Assembly: GCA_003990765.1 (NCBI GenBank)
Contig: RBNJ01000209.1
Coordinates: 1 to 36,649 of the forward strand
Reading direction: 5' to 3'
From: Jimgerdemannia flammicorona
Taxonomy: Eukaryota
DNA length: 36,649 nt
In this document: positions 9,016 to 16,988 of the stretch, one piece after another
How the letters are laid out: each line of letters opens with the position of its first letter
How positions within the stretch are numbered: position 1 is the stretch's first letter
Program-made: the position numbers and the translations under genes
Notes under the pieces: generated by a model
What the model was told of the DNA's origin: nothing
Seen by the model: the letters and a program-made list of their open reading frames with translations, nothing else
Database searches by the model: none

Positions 9016-9400
9016 TCTTATTTTGGATATTATTCATATATATTATTACTAATAAATTACCTTATTTTATTCTAAAGGTCATACTTTATATGGCTTTGAT
9101 GAGACTAAATAATATTTTCCACACTATAAAGCTAGCAAATATATTTTGGAGACAATATAAAATAAATATAATTTGATTATAATTGATATATATTGTGACA
9201 TATGCAATTGACAATGGAGTACCGGTGACTGCTAAGATCAGACGACATAATGGCGTGACAATCAAATAGACAGCCTGACCCATTAGGTGATCATCCCAAA
9301 AGAAGACAAGATGATCCGAGCCAAAATGAAGACCACGTTATTTAAGGAACCATACTCTGCCTCAGGGATTGGCACCAAAGAATCAAGTACCCACCACATA

Positions 9401-10387
9401 ATGCCTCCTATTCACCGAACCAACCAGACCTCCCGCCACTCTACCCCTTTGCCTGGCCCAAAGACCCTGATCTTTGAAGCTATCAAGAAGGCTATCTGGC
9501 ACCCAGATACTTCCAAACACTTGAACTTCTACACCGAGGACCTTGGATACTTCATCAACTACCAGTATATAATGACCCAACAGCTCAAAGATACTACCAA
9601 ACGAATGACCCTCTGGCATGACTACGAAATCGGACACCACCTTTGCAATGAGACTCAAGAAGACGACTGGGAAGGCCTCATTACGTAATTGATAACCACT
9701 ACCCGGCTAATCAAGAGAGCCCTCTGTGTCCACCAAATCTTCTGCCATATTCCCTGGGCCATAGCATACTTGCAAGGAGTAATGGCTGGCAGCCTCTCCC
9801 ACCTTTCAACTGAAGATGCTGACTGGATAGAATCTGAAGTAGCCAATGCTATTGGCAGCAACTGCATTGCCGTAGGAAGCCAACAAACCGAACCTACTCA
9901 GCCAGGTTTCCACACCACCCCACTCCGAGACAACTATCAAGGTCACCTAATGAGTCTTATGGAGATATTTAAAGGACCGCCCATTACTATAGAAGCACCT
10001 GTTGGAGCTACCCCAACCACCCACCACCTTGTCAGCCACAATTCACACCTCATCATTTGGGAACCAAATCAAGAAGAAGCCCAAGAAGTTCCTGTCTTTG
10101 AAGAGGAGGCCCAAGAACTCCAAGGCCCTGCCCCTGAAGAAACCCCCTCTGACACTGAAACTGATGAGTCTTCAGAAGAAGAAGAGGAGCAACAGAGAGT
10201 CTACCAGTCCTCTGTCCGCATTCAAGCAGTTCAGGGATTGGAAAATGTTGTTGAAGATGACTGACCACTTTTCTATCTCCTCACCTCTTGGCCAGCGCTT
10301 CCCCCCTTTGAGGAGAGATATGATGAAGAAGAAATCACAACCCAGCAAGATTTGCCCACCGCGGACGAAGGGTACTATTCCCTCTAG
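9401..10387 (+). pseudogene. ORF inside element A, ~328 aa; helical domain plus acidic Pro/Glu tail, unknown function
   Basis: ORFs 9287-9688 and 9689-10264 share a frame that continues to TAG 10385-10387. The TGA at 10262 is TGG in the second copy (ENVVEDDWPLFYPLTSWPALPPFEERY...YYSL*). Confidence 0.75.
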
Positions 10388-10417
10388 AGTACCGCCCATC
10401 AGCCATAAGAACCCAGC

Positions 10418-10690
10418 TTTTGTCAGCAGGTCCGAATTCAGCATTGCCACCCTCCATAACCATTTCTGGCAACAATCATCGTATCATGTCAGCTCATCCG
10501 AATCCAGCATTGCTACCCAGTACCACTGTTTTCAGCACTTTTGTCAGTAGGTCCAAATTCAGCATCGCCACCCTCCACAACCATTTCTGGCAACAATCAT
10601 CGTTTTATGTCAGCTCATCCGAATCCAGCATTGCTACCCAGTACCACCGTTTTCAGCATTTTGTCAGCAAGTCCGAATCCAGCATTGCTA
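10418..10690 (+). repeat. ~120-bp tandem repeats inside element A (U3 enhancer-like position)
   Basis: TTTGTCAG..GGTCC.AATTCAGCAT.GCCACCCTCCA.AACCATTTCTGGCAACAATCATCG...TCCGAATCCAGCATTGCTACCCAGTACCAC x ~2.3. A related but differently structured array is at 36120-36470. Confidence 0.85.
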
Positions 10691-10811
10691 TCCCCTACAA
10701 CCCAATCCATAGTAAACAATAGCCTGCACCTTGCATCATGCAAGCCAATAGCATAGCGAATGTTCGCCACAATGTAGTATACCTTAGCCGTGCCCATAGC
10801 TAGTAAACTTG

Positions 10812-12982: not shown

Positions 12983-14080
12983 ATGACCACCGAGATCTAC
13001 ACCCATATCTGTGCTGACATTTGGAATGCTATTGTCAACCGAGCTATACCCCCTCTGCCCCTCATAAATATCCATAGTCTAGCACCCCTCTACTTCATGG
13101 AAGCCCGATGGAATGCTCTGAACATACTTAGCGAGACCCACTGAATCGGACAAATCTCAAGCTACTACCAGATCGGCTGCCTCCTGGAAGATATAGTCGA
13201 ACACTACTACAATACAGACATTACTGAGATGTCTCAATACCAGAAACTCATCGCCTACAAACATCGAGAACTCTTCTATGAGTATAGCACTATTATTCCC
13301 CGCCTTCGAGTTATAACAGCTAAAATGGTTGCTACCCTATCCTATGGCCAAATCGATGACATGATACAAGAACTCAACCACAAGTACCTCGAGTACATCG
13401 AAACCACAGACAGAACCTTCCCACACCCTGATGACCACATCCTGCAAATGCCCCAAGTTGGATACTCCATGAAGGACATCTACGATATAATCCACTTCGA
13501 TGAAGATGAAGCAGAAGACAATGATCCCTCTGATGCCGATATGACCTCAAGCCAAGGATCCCTACCAACCCTGATCACACTGCCAACCTTGCCAATGAAC
13601 TTACAACAGTTCATAACTGCCTATGAGACTTATTGGGACAATGACCACTGGTACGAATACCAACCCGCATTCACCCCTGATTACTTCAACTACAATGAAG
13701 AGACTGGAGAACACAATCTGTACCTCTAGACAACCCTCGAAATTGAACCAACAACCCCACTACCTGAGTACGAATGACATGAACCACAACTGCCAGCATA
13801 CTATAACCCCACGACTCATAGTGCTGTAACCTACAGAAGGTACACAGATAGCGAATCCGATGAAAGCCAAGATGATGCACCCCTCCTTCACCCACCAACA
13901 CCTTATCCAGCATATGAGACAGACGATGCTATCCTATGGGACAGAGATGAAGTTCCAATGTATTATTACCTCAGCCAACAAGGAGAAGTAATCTGTGAAC
14001 CACTTTTCCTAGATGACTACTTTATCAGAGATGAAGCAATCGATAGTGATGTCATCAAAGACTACCCAGACAGTGCCTAA
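12983..14080 (+). pseudogene. ORF inside element B, ~365 aa; helical domain plus acidic Pro/Tyr-rich tail
   Basis: Single frame from ATG 12983 to TAA 14080, with stops at 13142, 13727 and ~13775. Includes listed ORF 13229-13729. Confidence 0.75.
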
Positions 14081-14413
14081 ACCATAAATAGCCTAGCAGT
14101 CATAGTATAGTTAGATTAGCTCTGTATGACATGACTGTGAACTGACTCAGCAGTCAGACAATCTCTCGACATGTCAGATCACACTTGTACTACATGACTG
14201 CATTCCGACTCAGCAAGGCACTTAGTGCTATATCCATATTCAGTATAGTCCAGATAGCCCCTCACTAGTATAAATACCCCCTCCCCCAGACCTCAGAATC
14301 TCAGACTCGAATACACAAGAACATTCCTGAATACTTCCACACAATATCTCTTCACACAACTACTCCTAGTATAGCAATATCATGAATAGCAAATAAACCA
14401 TTCAAAAACAGCT

Positions 14414-15596
14414 CCTTTCTCCGCTACCTTACCAGTCACAAGGTTTGGTAGGCAACCTTCCAAGTCTCCTTTCCCCTATTATTACCCCCTCTACCTCAGG
14501 TTGGTTTGCTGTGCCTGCAGGGGCATGGTGAGAGGAGGGCAATGGTGATGAGTTGCCCCTTTATCAGTGTTGGATCGGTGCTTCCTCCACTTTTTCGTGG
14601 ATTCTGGTGCTTTCAGCTACATCTGGGGTATACCTGTTTTGGTGCGGTGTGTTCTTCCTTTTGCCGTCGCCAACAAGGTGTTGTCTCGGTGTGTCTCAGG
14701 CTACATAGGGAGTCGGCTGACCTTGGGCGTCAAGTACTCAGTATAGGTTACCTGCAGGTCTTCGGTGCCTGTGGTGGAGCCCTCTGGCTTTGGCGAGCTT
14801 CCCGGCGAGCACGGTTCTGGCATAGGTGACTGCTTTTCAGGTGTTGTCAGGATGGGAGGGGAGATGGCTGTCACAGATAGGAGGAAGGGTGATTACGGTA
14901 AACCAGTAGGGTGCCAAGCTGGGGGCGGTCATCAGGGCTGGAACAGGTGCTGCTTCGGTGGGGCCTTTTGATTAGTGCGGCATGGTTAGGTGGTAGGTGT
15001 CACTAACAGCTTCTTTTGGCGGTCAGCAGGGTTGGGCCCCAGTCGTCAGGGGGGGTCAGGAGGCCCGAGGCTACCTATTTCAGGTGTCTTGGCTGCACTC
15101 AACTGGAACTGGGAGCTGATATGGCAATGTGATCGAGGCCCGCAGGCTTGAGTAGTGGGGTATTGGGGGTCTCCTCCTGCCTCATGTGTAAGTCCTTTAC
15201 TCACCTCGACTGGGAGAACCAGGCCCTACCCACTGTGTTGTACTTTGAGGAGGGTTTTTTCTTTGCCTATCATTCTCTTTAGAGTGGTAGGGGCTATTCT
15301 ATTCGGCTTGGGCGTGGCCTTGTACATACATTGGGTTCTCAGGCATGCGCTTTCGGTCGTTGGCATATGGTTGGATTTCCCCTGGTGGTAGGGAGAGCAT
15401 GGTGCGCAGAATGAGGTGCAGGCCTATAGGCCCTGCTGCGCCTGGCATGGTCGAGCTGCTGGACAATAGCTAGCCTAGGTTAATGGAGTGGCAGTGCTTG
15501 GTGGGTGGTGGGGGAGGGTTTTGGCCTATATAGTCTAGGTTCCCTTCCAATAAAATTCCGCGGGACATGAGTCCAAAAAAAAAAAAAAAAAAAAAA
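14414..15596 (+). mobile_element. R1 full-length copy 3, nested in element B
   Basis: Same 5' start as copy 1 and a 22-nt poly(A). Imperfect ~25-bp TSD AATAGCAAATAAACC(T)ATTCAA.AAC (14385-14409 / 15595-15620). Confidence 0.9.
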
Positions 15597-16988
15597 TAGC
15601 AAATAAACCTATTCAATAACCCACCATTCACTCTTAAGTAAATCTGCTCTCTGTTAGATCCTACTCCTAACCCTATTACAAATTTCCTAATTGGGTATTG
15701 TCTGCAGTGATACACCAATTCAACTAAGCTGATCTTAGTTTCTTGAACTTCTTGAAATACAGGAATTCTGAATATCTAGAACTAGTCCGAAAAAAGGACT
15801 TTGGTTGAGATGTCAACCTGATCTTGAAATAAATAAGCATAGAGGACGTACTCCATATAACATTGATCTTGACCATAAGAAAACAGTCTTTCAGAATATC
15901 TAGAACTTCCAGAAAACCCTTCTAGAACTATATAATAGTTACCTTAAAAAGCAACCCTCTTACACCCTGACCCCCCCAGATGACTAGGGCCCAACCCCAC
16001 GAATTACCAAAAGAAGCCAAGAGTGACACCTACCATCTAACCACATCGCACCAATCAAAAGACCCCACCAAAGCAGCACCTGCTACAGCCCTGATGACTG
16101 CTTCCAGTCTAGCACCCTACTGGTTCACCATTATCACCCTTCCTCCTATCTGTGATGGCCATCTCTCCTTCCAACCCGACAACACCCGAAAAGCAGTCAC
16201 CTATGCCAGAACCATGCTTGCCAGGAAGCTCACCAAAGCCAGAGGGCCCCACCACAGGCACCGAGGACCTACAGGTAACCTATACTAGGCACTTGATGCC
16301 CAAGGTCAGCCAACTCTCTATGTAGTCTGAGATATACTGAGACAACTCCTTGTTAGTAACGGCAAAAGGAAGAAGGCACCACACCAAAATGGGTACACTC
16401 CAGACATAGCTGAAGACACCAGAATCCATGAAAAAGTAGAGAAAGCACCAATCTGACACTAATAAAAGGGCAACTCATCACCATTGCTCTCCTCCCACCA
16501 TACCCCTATAGGCACAGCAAACCAACCTGAGATAGAGGGGGTAATATTAGGGGAAAGGGGACTCAGAAGGTCACCTACCAAACCTTGTGACCAGTAAGGT
16601 AGCGCGGAGAAAGGGTCGGCCAGGCAGATCATTGAAAATACTTTTTGCTCACCTAAACCAGTCACGTGATAGTGTGCCCAAGTGCGCCCAAATGATAATT
16701 AATAGGAAATCTGGTAGAAACAATTGCTAATTATTATATTCTCTCTCCAGAATATTATTGATAATGGTGTCATTCCGAAGAAGTCAAGATCGGACCGCGA
16801 AACAGCTCCCACCTAGGCTAATCTCTTCGACATCTTAGTAGAGATGGCGGAAACTAGATGGATGGTCTTGGTTAGGGTTGATAGGTGACAAATGACAGGT
16901 GAATGTCCAAATCAGGCTGATAGTAGGAATACTTAGATAAGGCCCGGAAGTCAAGGCAGAAGTAGAAAGAGATATGCACGGTAGCGAA

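Follow-up and report, generated by a model that had tools for sequence, protein, structure and literature searches.

Two large insertions, designated A and B, lie close together in the 36,649-nt contig RBNJ01000209.1 of Jimgerdemannia flammicorona, the whole of which is referred to here as the window, and each carries an open reading frame (ORF) near its 5' end. The question raised by this locus is whether A and B are LTRs of retrotransposons and whether the proteins that they encode are related. The reading that we prefer, with moderate confidence, is that they are solo LTRs of two LTR-retrotransposon families of this AT-rich fungal genome, each with a gene in its U3 part, the B-type gene being probably a distant relative of the A-type gene.

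The insertions and their target sites

Insertion A, of 2440 bp, has the termini TGTGAC...CACCACA, and a second, inverted copy, A', is present at the end of the window.

9190..9193, unstranded: left target-site duplication of A, ATAT (from the sequence; right copy at 11634-11637)
9194..11633, plus strand: A, LTR-like insertion (from the sequence; ends backed by a contig of public run X2 on the 5' side and by A' on the 3' side)
35296..36649, minus strand: A', a further copy of A, truncated where the window ends and covering A 10239-11633 (blastn self-comparison and alignment)

The 5' end of A is confirmed by a 330-nt contig of run X2, which matches A from 9194 onward and has 24 unmatched letters ahead of the match, and the 3' end by the alignment with A', 77-79% identical. 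Since A lies between AT-rich, (AT)n-like flanks, its duplication can be read as 4 or as 6 bp. The final 700 bp of A have far lower depth in the other public runs, and the contigs of runs X2 and X3 diverge at 10849.

Insertion B, with the termini TGTAAG...CTTACA, is located within an older retroposon, L, and is itself split by another copy of the same retroposon.

12157..16619, minus strand: L, older 1.19-kb poly(A) retroposon, target of B, in halves at 12157-12693 and 15965-16619 (self-comparison)
12689..12693, unstranded: left target-site duplication of B, CCCCA (from the sequence; right copy CCCTG at 15965-15969)
12694..15964, plus strand: B, LTR-like insertion, 2061 bp net of the nested retroposon (from the sequence; X1 contig at the 5' end, X4 loose ends at the 3' end)
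14400..15595, plus strand: L(+), nested poly(A) retroposon copy of about 1.2 kb splitting B (14-bp duplication at 14386-14399 and 15596-15609)

A contig of run X1 that matches from 12696 onward confirms the 5' end of B; in run X4, loose ends at 15964 mark the 3' end. The nested L(+) is absent from the B copies in all four of the four public runs, where loose ends at 14399 continue into B. The halves of L flanking B share a single 12-bp duplication, CCAGGCAGATCA, at 12145-12156 and 16620-16631; B was thus inserted within L, and intact L copies represent its empty site. One such copy reads TCCTG at the target position (around 15055, on the other strand). The duplicates CCCCA and CCCTG, identical at three of five positions, could both be derived from CCCCG via CpG decay.

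A and B thus behave as integrase-type insertions, with TG..CA ends, inverted termini of 4-6 bp, duplications of 4 bp (A) and 5 bp (B), and an empty site for B. The sizes of 2.44 and about 2.06 kb, the 4- and 5-bp duplications and the lack of evident DNA similarity between A and B, all put forward in the original prediction, hold, the last in a blastn comparison of A with B (word 9, E<=1e-5) that gave no match.

Internal layout

Each insertion has a single ORF on its sense strand, close to the 5' end; next come the motif TATAAATA, present once on that strand in A and in B, and then AATAAA.

9339..9346, plus strand: TATA-like box (TATTTAAG), 55-62 nt 5' of the conserved ATG of the A ORF (sequence motif)
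9401..10264, plus strand: A ORF, pseudogene, 287 codons from the conserved MPP start (translation; in-frame TAA at 9686-9688)
10417..10685, plus strand: 121-bp tandem repeat, 2.2 copies, between the A ORF and TATAAATA (TRF and repeat search)
10812..10843, plus strand: TATAAATA at 10812-10819 and AATAAA at 10838-10843, putative U3/R boundary of A (motif search)
11073..11166, plus strand: 12/25-bp tandem repeats (CATTCRGACCAC) in the putative U5 of A (TRF)
12983..14080, plus strand: B ORF, pseudogene, 365 codons (translation; in-frame stops at 13142, 13727 and 13775)
14269..14397, plus strand: TATAAATA at 14269-14276 and AATAAA at 14392-14397, putative U3/R boundary of B (motif search)

The A' copy keeps the TATAAATA/AATAAA block on the minus strand, at 36025 and 36001. 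The part of A downstream of AATAAA, 790 bp, is long for a U5. A motif resembling CATTCRGACCAC is also found at the 3' end of the metagenome contig L001. The layout proposed originally, namely TG, ORF, short repeats, TATAAATA, AATAAA and CA, is common to both insertions except for the short repeats before TATAAATA, which TRF finds in A alone. Of the predicted ORF lengths of about 330-365 aa, that of B stands at 365 codons, but A encodes 287 aa from 9401, and both frames are interrupted, by one stop in A and three in B. A start of the A ORF at 9311 was rejected, the conserved start among its relatives being the ATG at 9401.

The ORFs and their relatives

The A ORF is, by sequence comparison, a member of a small, real and conserved family of stand-alone proteins. 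An exhaustive profile search of 1.84 billion proteins yielded eight representatives at E<=0.001, all of at most 342 aa and none of the eight fused to pol. Three relatives of near-equal length are 73-76% identical to the A ORF (P0001 76%), the proteins P0005, P0007, P0008 and P0011 are open relatives at about 30% identity, and contig L001 carries an open A-type ORF of 291 aa. For the B ORF two intact relatives were found. P0012, 80% identical, shares the MTTEIY start and has R at the position of the first stop of B, and P0004, 65-66% identical, reads Q where B has its second and third stops. Because intact relatives exist, the A and B ORFs are taken to be real genes.

In the product of each ORF, a helical N-terminal domain of some 140-150 aa is probably followed by a tail that is likely to be disordered; the acidic, Pro-rich character of both tails, noted originally, is present in both translations. 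Structure prediction gave an all-helical N-terminal domain for A at pLDDT 60-93 and an unusable model for B (pLDDT 32.8), and neither Foldseek nor VIA matched a known fold.

Are the two proteins homologous?

Homology of the A and B proteins is probable from sequence comparison, and the B-type protein would probably be a very distant member of the A-type family. The original prediction relied on an alignment by eye, which in a BLASTP comparison of the two window ORFs scores only 11 bits (E 44); the best BLASTP match, E 0.64, joins non-equivalent positions. The same colinear alignment, over about 105 columns, is nevertheless the top hhalign match between the profiles, although the profile scores are borderline: P is 0.034, and 0.012 with a better B profile, but the hhalign probability is only 1.5-3.7% (0.3-3.7% across all runs). 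The N-terminus of B matches diverged A members by BLASTP at E 0.002-0.007, always colinearly, and the alignment recurs with four of them, P0007, the L001 ORF, P0005 and, more weakly, P0008.

That A and B are solo LTRs with unrelated ORFs, captured independently or, in the case of B, born in its own LTR, and that the likeness arose by chance between two helical sequences with acidic tails, is an alternative that we consider doubtful; the common layout would on this view reflect no more than the general plan of an LTR. It accords with the weak pairwise and hhalign values, with the lack of A-B similarity in DNA, with the absence of tandem repeats from B (TRF) and with the exhaustive A search, made with a shallow A1 profile, in which none of the eight matches is B-type. 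Moreover, when 140-aa windows of a six-frame translation were compared with the A profile, an AT-rich noise locus at 2630-3259 (minus strand) scored 8.3 bits against 5.3-6.0 bits for B. Against chance stands the agreement of hhalign, hmmsearch and BLASTP, the last with the four diverged A members, on one colinear alignment, whose scores are seldom reached at random: the 25.4 bits of B against diverged A members by 2 of 1000 shuffles and by none of 96 other, natural ORFs of the window, and the 6.0 bits of B in hmmsearch against the A profile by 8 of 3000 shuffles. A and B also agree in where the ORF lies within the element and in its domain plan, with an acidic tail after a helical part of about 140 aa.

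LTRs or single-gene elements?

A and B are likely to be LTRs of LTR retrotransposons. In run X4 two contigs extend past the last base of B (15964) into one common sequence (agreement 0.98), in which a 3-nt spacer is followed by the 12-mer TGATAGCAGCGG, close to an initiator-tRNA-Met primer-binding site (PBS) with a mismatch in TGG; coming from two contigs of one run, this flank may represent a single locus or a B copy within another repeat. The initiator-Met PBS is given as TGGTAGCAGAGC in an excerpt of PMC5445492, an animal-type consensus that may not be that of the host. By our own estimate the chance of a 9-mer with at most one mismatch within six offsets is about 6e-4, and the motif has no match in the window at up to two mismatches. 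No PBS was seen 3' of A and A', the two copies in the window, and no polypurine tract was seen.

The reading of A and B as complete mobile elements of one gene each, either non-autonomous and moved in trans by the integrase of an LTR retrotransposon or forming a class of their own, is improbable in our estimate. All copies seen in the window, A, A' and B, are single, with no direct pair of A or B around gag-pol, and internal retrotransposon sequence is absent from its 36.6 kb, where none of the 126 ORFs of at least 65 aa has a Pfam match to RT, IN or gag. A TATA-like box before the ORF and a downstream poly(A) signal would make each element self-contained, and in the protein databases the relatives are without exception short ORFs that stand alone on contigs of 0.6-1.5 kb. 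Such contigs, however, and the public contigs found in general (up to 1.5 kb), are too short to reveal pairs of LTRs, and the PBS-like motif after the end of B speaks for an LTR. A look for pairs in viral and prokaryote collections yielded nothing. Such single copies are ordinarily solo LTRs flanked by intact duplications, and we know of no route to reverse transcription and TG..CA integration without LTR pairs, a PBS and a polypurine tract.

As solo LTRs, A and B resemble those of Ty3/Gypsy or Ty1/Copia elements in the TG...CA ends, the short inverted termini, the 4-6-bp duplication around a single copy, the poly(A) signal placed after a TATA box and, in other copies, the putative initiator-tRNA-Met-like PBS beside the 3' end of B. 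They differ from them in being longer (2.06-2.44 kb) and in the conserved ORF of about 290-365 codons that each contains. A typical fungal LTR measures a few hundred bp, and a protein gene inside the LTR is unusual for fungal retrotransposons. In the sag gene of MMTV an ORF of about 300 codons lies wholly within U3, 5' of the TATA box, lengthening the LTR and being present in both LTRs. The likeness to A and B is one of position, inside the LTR and upstream of the TATA box, and implies no relation of sequence or family (Pfam finds no Sag); in the present case the host is fungal, and no infectious retrovirus is involved. An excerpt on the crapaud element gives an LTR of 339-443 bp (PMC10787394). 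LTR retrotransposons of bdelloid rotifers are described as having extra lineage-specific ORFs of unclear function common to different retroelement families (PMC5408684); these are internal, beside gag and pol, whereas the ORFs of A and B lie inside the putative terminal repeat itself.

Possible transcription and putative boundaries of U3, R and U5

Each solo LTR would have been left after recombination between the two LTRs of a full element. A complete, intronless gene would lie in the putative U3, upstream of TATAAATA/AATAAA, at both ends of the full element, and would persist in solo LTRs. A TATA-like box 55-80 nt before the ORF, together with the poly(A) signal of the LTR, could form a self-contained transcription unit. 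We infer both this separate transcription and the assignment of U3, R and U5. The boxes of B (12905-12912) and L001 (296-303), like that of A, are short and recognised as motifs alone, in DNA that is moderately rich in AT.

The same boxes, which precede the start codon by 55-80 nt in A, B and L001, could instead be the main promoter, which would place the ORF in an R of about 1.5 kb as a first cistron with a leader or gag-like role; this we regard as quite unlikely. The AATAAA of A lies only 18 nt past TATAAATA, an awkward spacing if TATAAATA is the TATA box that sets the start of R, and capsid domains, like the predicted N-terminal domain of A, are all-helical. Yet we know of no precedent for an R of 1.5 kb, no other non-coding block is conserved as well between A and A' as TATAAATA/AATAAA (88% over 77 nt), Pfam contains no gag match, and there is no capsid among the fold matches (Foldseek best E 0.44; VIA best Z 3.7; model pLDDT 59.9).

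Decay and possible role

Both ORF copies in the window are dead pseudogenes, as shown by their stops and by CpG decay. The observed/expected CpG ratio is 0.50 for A and 0.53/0.20 for B, the window elements differ from other copies mostly by transitions, and the window has C or H at positions where intact relatives have R. That the ORFs are only chance open frames in C/A-rich repeats is very improbable: stops in both window copies, the lack of Pfam, PDB and fold matches and the low Atlas recognition score of P0001 would fit, but there are open relatives of equal length at about 30% identity with the conserved motifs YEIG, HQIFRH.P and FEGPPI, the N-terminal domain of A is predicted with the pLDDT given above, and the differences between B and other copies are enriched at third codon positions (10 of the 15 best-supported differences, P 0.0085; 9 of 15 synonymous).

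The product might serve its element in trans; that it is an adaptor or a regulator is only a guess. The two window ORFs have no Pfam family at E<=0.1, and for ten A-family members at E<=1 Pfam returned two unrelated DUF rows alone (E 0.024-0.077), with no gag and no Sag; the PDB sequence search gave no match for the ORF proteins. Neither Pfam and PDB sequences nor Foldseek and VIA gave a match behind the trans-activator or anti-silencing function proposed originally. The original observation is partly confirmed: the discrete insertions and the shared layout hold, but both ORFs are broken here. The interpretation as a whole is partly supported: the conserved LTR-encoded protein corresponds to a real A-family and to a B ORF with intact relatives, but the window holds pseudogenes and not working genes. 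If the LTR reading is true, A and B would be dead solo LTRs that each retain a broken copy of a real protein gene, a situation unusual among fungal retrotransposons.

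The A and B Elements and Their Copies

The two TG...CA insertions A and B share the layout ascribed to them by the original prediction, in which a long frame near the 5′ end is followed by a TATA motif and then by AATAAA, and a comparison of the two confirmed that no similarity between them is found at the DNA level. Their parts, together with the copies of the poly(A) retroposon L associated with B, are as follows.

9194–11633, forward strand: element A, 2440 bp, starting with TGTGAC and ending with CACCACA, with ATAT on both sides
9401–10264, forward strand: long frame of A
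10812: single TATAAATA of A, 3′ of the frame
10838: AATAAA of A, downstream of TATAAATA
~35296–36649, inverted: A′, the second copy of A, cut by the window end, 77–79% identical to A 10239–11633
12694–15964, forward strand: element B, net 2061 bp, starting with TGTAAG and ending with CTTACA
12983–14080, forward strand: long frame of B
14269: single TATAAATA of B, 3′ of the frame
14392: AATAAA of B, downstream of TATAAATA
7339–8523, forward strand: full copy of L, intact
14400–15595, forward strand: full copy of L nested in B, with a 14-bp duplication
12157–12693 and 15965–16619, reverse strand: copy of L split by B, its outer flanks carrying one 12-bp duplication, CCAGGCAGATCA
16990–17081, forward strand: 5′-truncated tail of L, ~90 bp

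The 5′ end of A is marked by a 330-nt contig from the public sequencing run X2, which matches from exactly 9194 and has 24 unmatched letters ahead of this point. A′ terminates in the same ...CACA as A; given their inverted orientation and separation by 23.7 kb, A and A′ do not constitute an LTR pair. The block containing the TATA motif and AATAAA is the best-conserved non-coding block between them (88% over 77 nt). Between the ORF and the TATA motif, where short repeats had also been predicted, tandem repeats were found in A (121 bp × 2.2, TRF) but not in B. In A, B, and the metagenome contig L001 with its A-type ORF, the ATG is preceded at a distance of 55–80 nt by a further TATA-like box; taken with the poly(A) signal of the LTR, these short motifs suggest that the LTR may form a transcription unit of its own.

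Downstream of AATAAA, 790 bp remain in A and ~355 bp in B. In other runs A-like contigs drop in depth, from ~220 to below 3, across the final 700 bp of A (10928–11633), and contigs of X2 and X3 depart from the window sequence at 10849, directly 3′ of AATAAA, so the putative U5 of A is a subfamily-specific or swapped module. This part contains, at 11073–11166, a 12-bp repeat unit, CATTCRGACCAC, which recurs as ATTCGGAAC and GTTCAGAAC at the end of L001 (1495–1523), despite the L001 protein being only 36% identical to that of A; a related 33-nt stretch is also present upstream of the L001 ORF (170–202 vs. 1481–1513, 82%). The CATTCRGAMC repeat was considered as a binding site common to both elements and rejected, being present in the A repeats and at the L001 end and absent from B. 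An AT-rich repeat, 88–95% identical between 11727–12010 and 34562–34905, is found past the 3′ ends of both copies, at a distance of 93 bp from A and ~390 bp from A′, in opposite orientations relative to the element; it could reflect a target preference or merely be an abundant repeat.

The net size of B agrees with the ~2.06 kb originally estimated. L, a 1.19-kb non-coding sequence with a poly(A) tail and 12–15-bp target duplications, is without a match in Pfam or Rfam and is represented by many diverged copies in the sequencing runs compared. Since the halves of the split L copy are flanked by one common 12-bp duplication, B landed within L, and the intact L copies represent its empty site. 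The target duplication of B consists of CCCCA to its left and CCCTG to its right; either could be derived from CCCCG through CpG decay. Contigs of all four runs compared cross the site of the nested L copy without L. The insertions of L both before and after the arrival of B thus provide a relative time line.

ORFs as Coding Families and Their Decay

Both ORFs belong to real coding families, as judged from their intact relatives and the codon-position pattern, and each is a pseudogene in its window copy; the ORFs originally proposed stand as families but not as open genes in the window, the A ORF being interrupted by TAA and the B ORF by TGA, TAG, and TGA. Intact relatives of the A ORF include the database proteins P0001 (325 aa, 76% identity), P0002, and P0003. 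When 1.84e9 representatives were searched exhaustively with a profile, eight A-family proteins were obtained at E ≤ 0.001, all of at most 342 aa. Of these, P0005, P0007, P0008, and P0011 are ~30% identical and have the YEIG, HQIFRH.P, and FEGPPI motifs in common. No pol or gag fusion occurs among the intact A relatives found. An open A-type ORF of 291 aa is present on L001 (1535 nt), the only one of 12 pattern matches among metagenome contigs to be confirmed, the length of which is insufficient to reveal its context. In the B relative P0004 (247 aa) the second and third stop positions are open, with Q at both, and P0012 (128 aa, 80% identity) has the same MTTEIY start and R at the first stop position. 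Among the 15 best-supported differences between the B ORF and other copies (the best 15 of 40 listed, with 765 further ones), 10 are at the third codon position (P 0.0085) and 9 are synonymous. Reassignment of stop codons was rejected, as all three stop codons are found in frame and the relatives have sense codons at those places.

The decay of the ORFs fits CpG loss: the CpG observed/expected ratio amounts to 0.50 for A and 0.53/0.20 for B, C or H is found in the window where relatives have R, and the differences between the window and other copies are mainly transitions. Elsewhere the ratio varies from 0.06 for the AT-rich flank on the left (1–7300) to 0.89 for a gene-like stretch (19269–22062) and 0.93 for A′ (35287–36649), a very uneven decay, as expected if the DNA is methylated only in part.

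Searches with the A and B profiles gave 11 and 20 pattern matches among viral contigs and 4 and 12 among genome contigs, none of them confirmed, and megablast of A against a plasmid collection, poorly suited to this purpose, gave no match. Five matching sequencing runs were listed, with small shares (0.05–0.16) and no RNA runs among them.

Relationship of the A and B Proteins

The colinear alignment of the two proteins made by eye in the original prediction was recovered as the top hhalign alignment (105–106 columns; P 0.034, then 0.012), but its pairwise score is 11 bits (E 44). The hhalign probability for A and B is 0.3% with shallow profiles and 1.5% and 3.7% with better ones. In BLASTP the window ORFs match each other with a best E of 0.64, at non-equivalent places. 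B scores 6.0 bits against the A profile in hmmsearch, a value equalled in 8 of 3000 shuffles, and an AT-rich noise locus scores above it; none of the eight proteins from the exhaustive A-profile search is of the B type. When residues 1–140 of B were compared with eight A-type sequences by BLASTP, P0007 (E 0.002), the L001 ORF (0.003), and P0005 (0.007) matched at equivalent positions, with a score equalled in 2 of 1000 shuffles and by none of 96 other window ORFs. Both proteins consist of a helical N-domain of ~140–150 residues (the B model being of low confidence) followed by the acidic Pro-rich tail that had been predicted for each. On balance, the two proteins are likely to be homologous.

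Neither protein has a Pfam family, and a search of PDB sequences gave nothing for A and only noise for B (E 0.45). The A-family model has a pLDDT of 59.9 overall, with blocks of 60–93 in the N-domain, no Foldseek PDB match at E ≤ 0.001 (best E 0.44), and VIA matches of Z 3.7 at most; the B model has a pLDDT of 32.8. The ESM Atlas returned nothing usable for P0001, and for the L001 ORF only leads below 0.92, including one at 0.89 to a cluster of Mucoromycota proteins annotated as 'hypothetical protein'. That the product acts in trans as a regulator or adaptor can at best be guessed at.

LTR Status and Genomic Surroundings

The ends, duplications, and signals of A and B are those of LTRs and thus count in favor of LTR status. 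The sole direct hint is found in run X4, of which two contigs continue past 15964 into one common sequence (agreement 0.98), in which a 3-nt spacer beyond the B end is followed by TGATAGCAGCGG. This motif matches the initiator-tRNA-Met primer-binding site (PBS) in 8 of 9 and 9 of 12 positions, relative to the consensus given in the text of PMC5445492, which is of animal type and may differ from that of the host; the differing letters 10 and 12 would be consistent with an organism-specific acceptor stem. The PBS-like motif is absent from the window, and no comparable flank was found for A, the last 700 bp of which are poorly common to copies in other runs. If the elements are LTRs, a full element would have a PBS of the TGGTAGCAG... 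type directly 3′ of its 5′ copy.

Among other classes, the TRIM/LARD type was rejected for lack of terminal direct repeats in A, and DNA transposons such as Ginger because long TIRs are absent. Helitrons and DIRS elements were rejected as well, since their definitions do not fit the ends and duplications observed. A and B are quite probably LTRs; no pair around gag-pol was seen in the window or in the contigs of the other runs, the latter being too short to span a full-length element. Overall, the original prediction holds largely as an observation and in part only as an interpretation.

The window ORF set comprises 126 stop-to-stop ORFs of at least 65 aa, none of which matches reverse transcriptase, integrase, or gag; no tRNA genes or Rfam families are present in the window. 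GC content is 26–30% over most of 1–7000 and 32000–35000, with GC-richer islands elsewhere. Other features are as follows.

929–1705, forward strand: ORF with a Crinkler N-terminal domain (Pfam E 5e-17) and a long acidic tail
30827–31378, forward strand: ORF with a Crinkler N-terminal domain (Pfam E 5e-16)
5273–5584, reverse strand: cyclin_N ORF fragment (E 4e-19)
21463–22059, forward strand: long ORF with a signal-peptide-like start, Cys-rich
19272–20051, reverse strand: long ORF
25410–25915, 28872–29089, 29694–30018, and 23241–23578: tandem-repeat arrays of the right half, with units of 63/105, 72, 132, and ~102–117 bp

The two Crinkler ORFs are 76% identical over 225 bp of DNA, and the cyclin_N fragment probably represents a host-gene exon. 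Base composition, the Crinkler ORFs, and the Mucoromycota lead from the ESM Atlas together suggest a Glomeromycotina-like fungus. The ORFs at 21463–22059 and 19272–20051 have no Pfam match and sit in a GC-richer stretch without CpG depletion.

Comparison with Known Systems and Implications

In their mode of working A and B resemble solo LTRs. As regards position, the ORFs are most nearly matched by sag, located in the U3 of MMTV, to which they have no sequence relation. From fungal LTRs, such as that of crapaud, reported at 339–443 bp in the text of PMC10787394, A and B differ in size and in carrying a gene. Among the papers listed by full-text searches on LTR-borne ORFs in fungi or AM fungi and on R. 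irregularis transposons, none was found to report such an ORF.

Tentatively, A and B might represent a fungal (Glomeromycotina-like) LTR-retrotransposon lineage with a self-contained accessory gene in the LTR, consisting of its own promoter, the ORF, and the LTR poly(A) signal, and kept across LTR families whose DNA is beyond alignment. Such a gene inside the LTR would be present in two copies per element and could outlive the element in solo LTRs; its protein could plausibly act in trans on element expression or host silencing. Should A and B be no more than decayed solo LTRs whose ORFs are dead, the result is a useful annotation and nothing beyond.

If both the LTR and the coding readings are true, these elements would depart from the general pattern of LTRs as purely regulatory sequences, and the LTR would be a portable gene, its promoter, ORF, and terminator forming a single recombination-proof unit. 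Under the lineage reading above, no LTR-encoded protein family would have been described before in fungal retrotransposons, and the fold is without known relative. The unmatched helical domain and acidic tail would make the family a new target for function studies. In R. irregularis, CG methylation has been reported and 24% of the genome consists of unclassified repeats, according to the text of PMC8647823, which also cites other fungi in which methylation is highest in repeats and transposons. If both readings are true, the elements would bear on the annotation of 'orphan' hypothetical proteins in such genomes, and on the way in which the retrotransposons of arbuscular-mycorrhizal-type fungi withstand the heavy CpG methylation to which repeats are subject.
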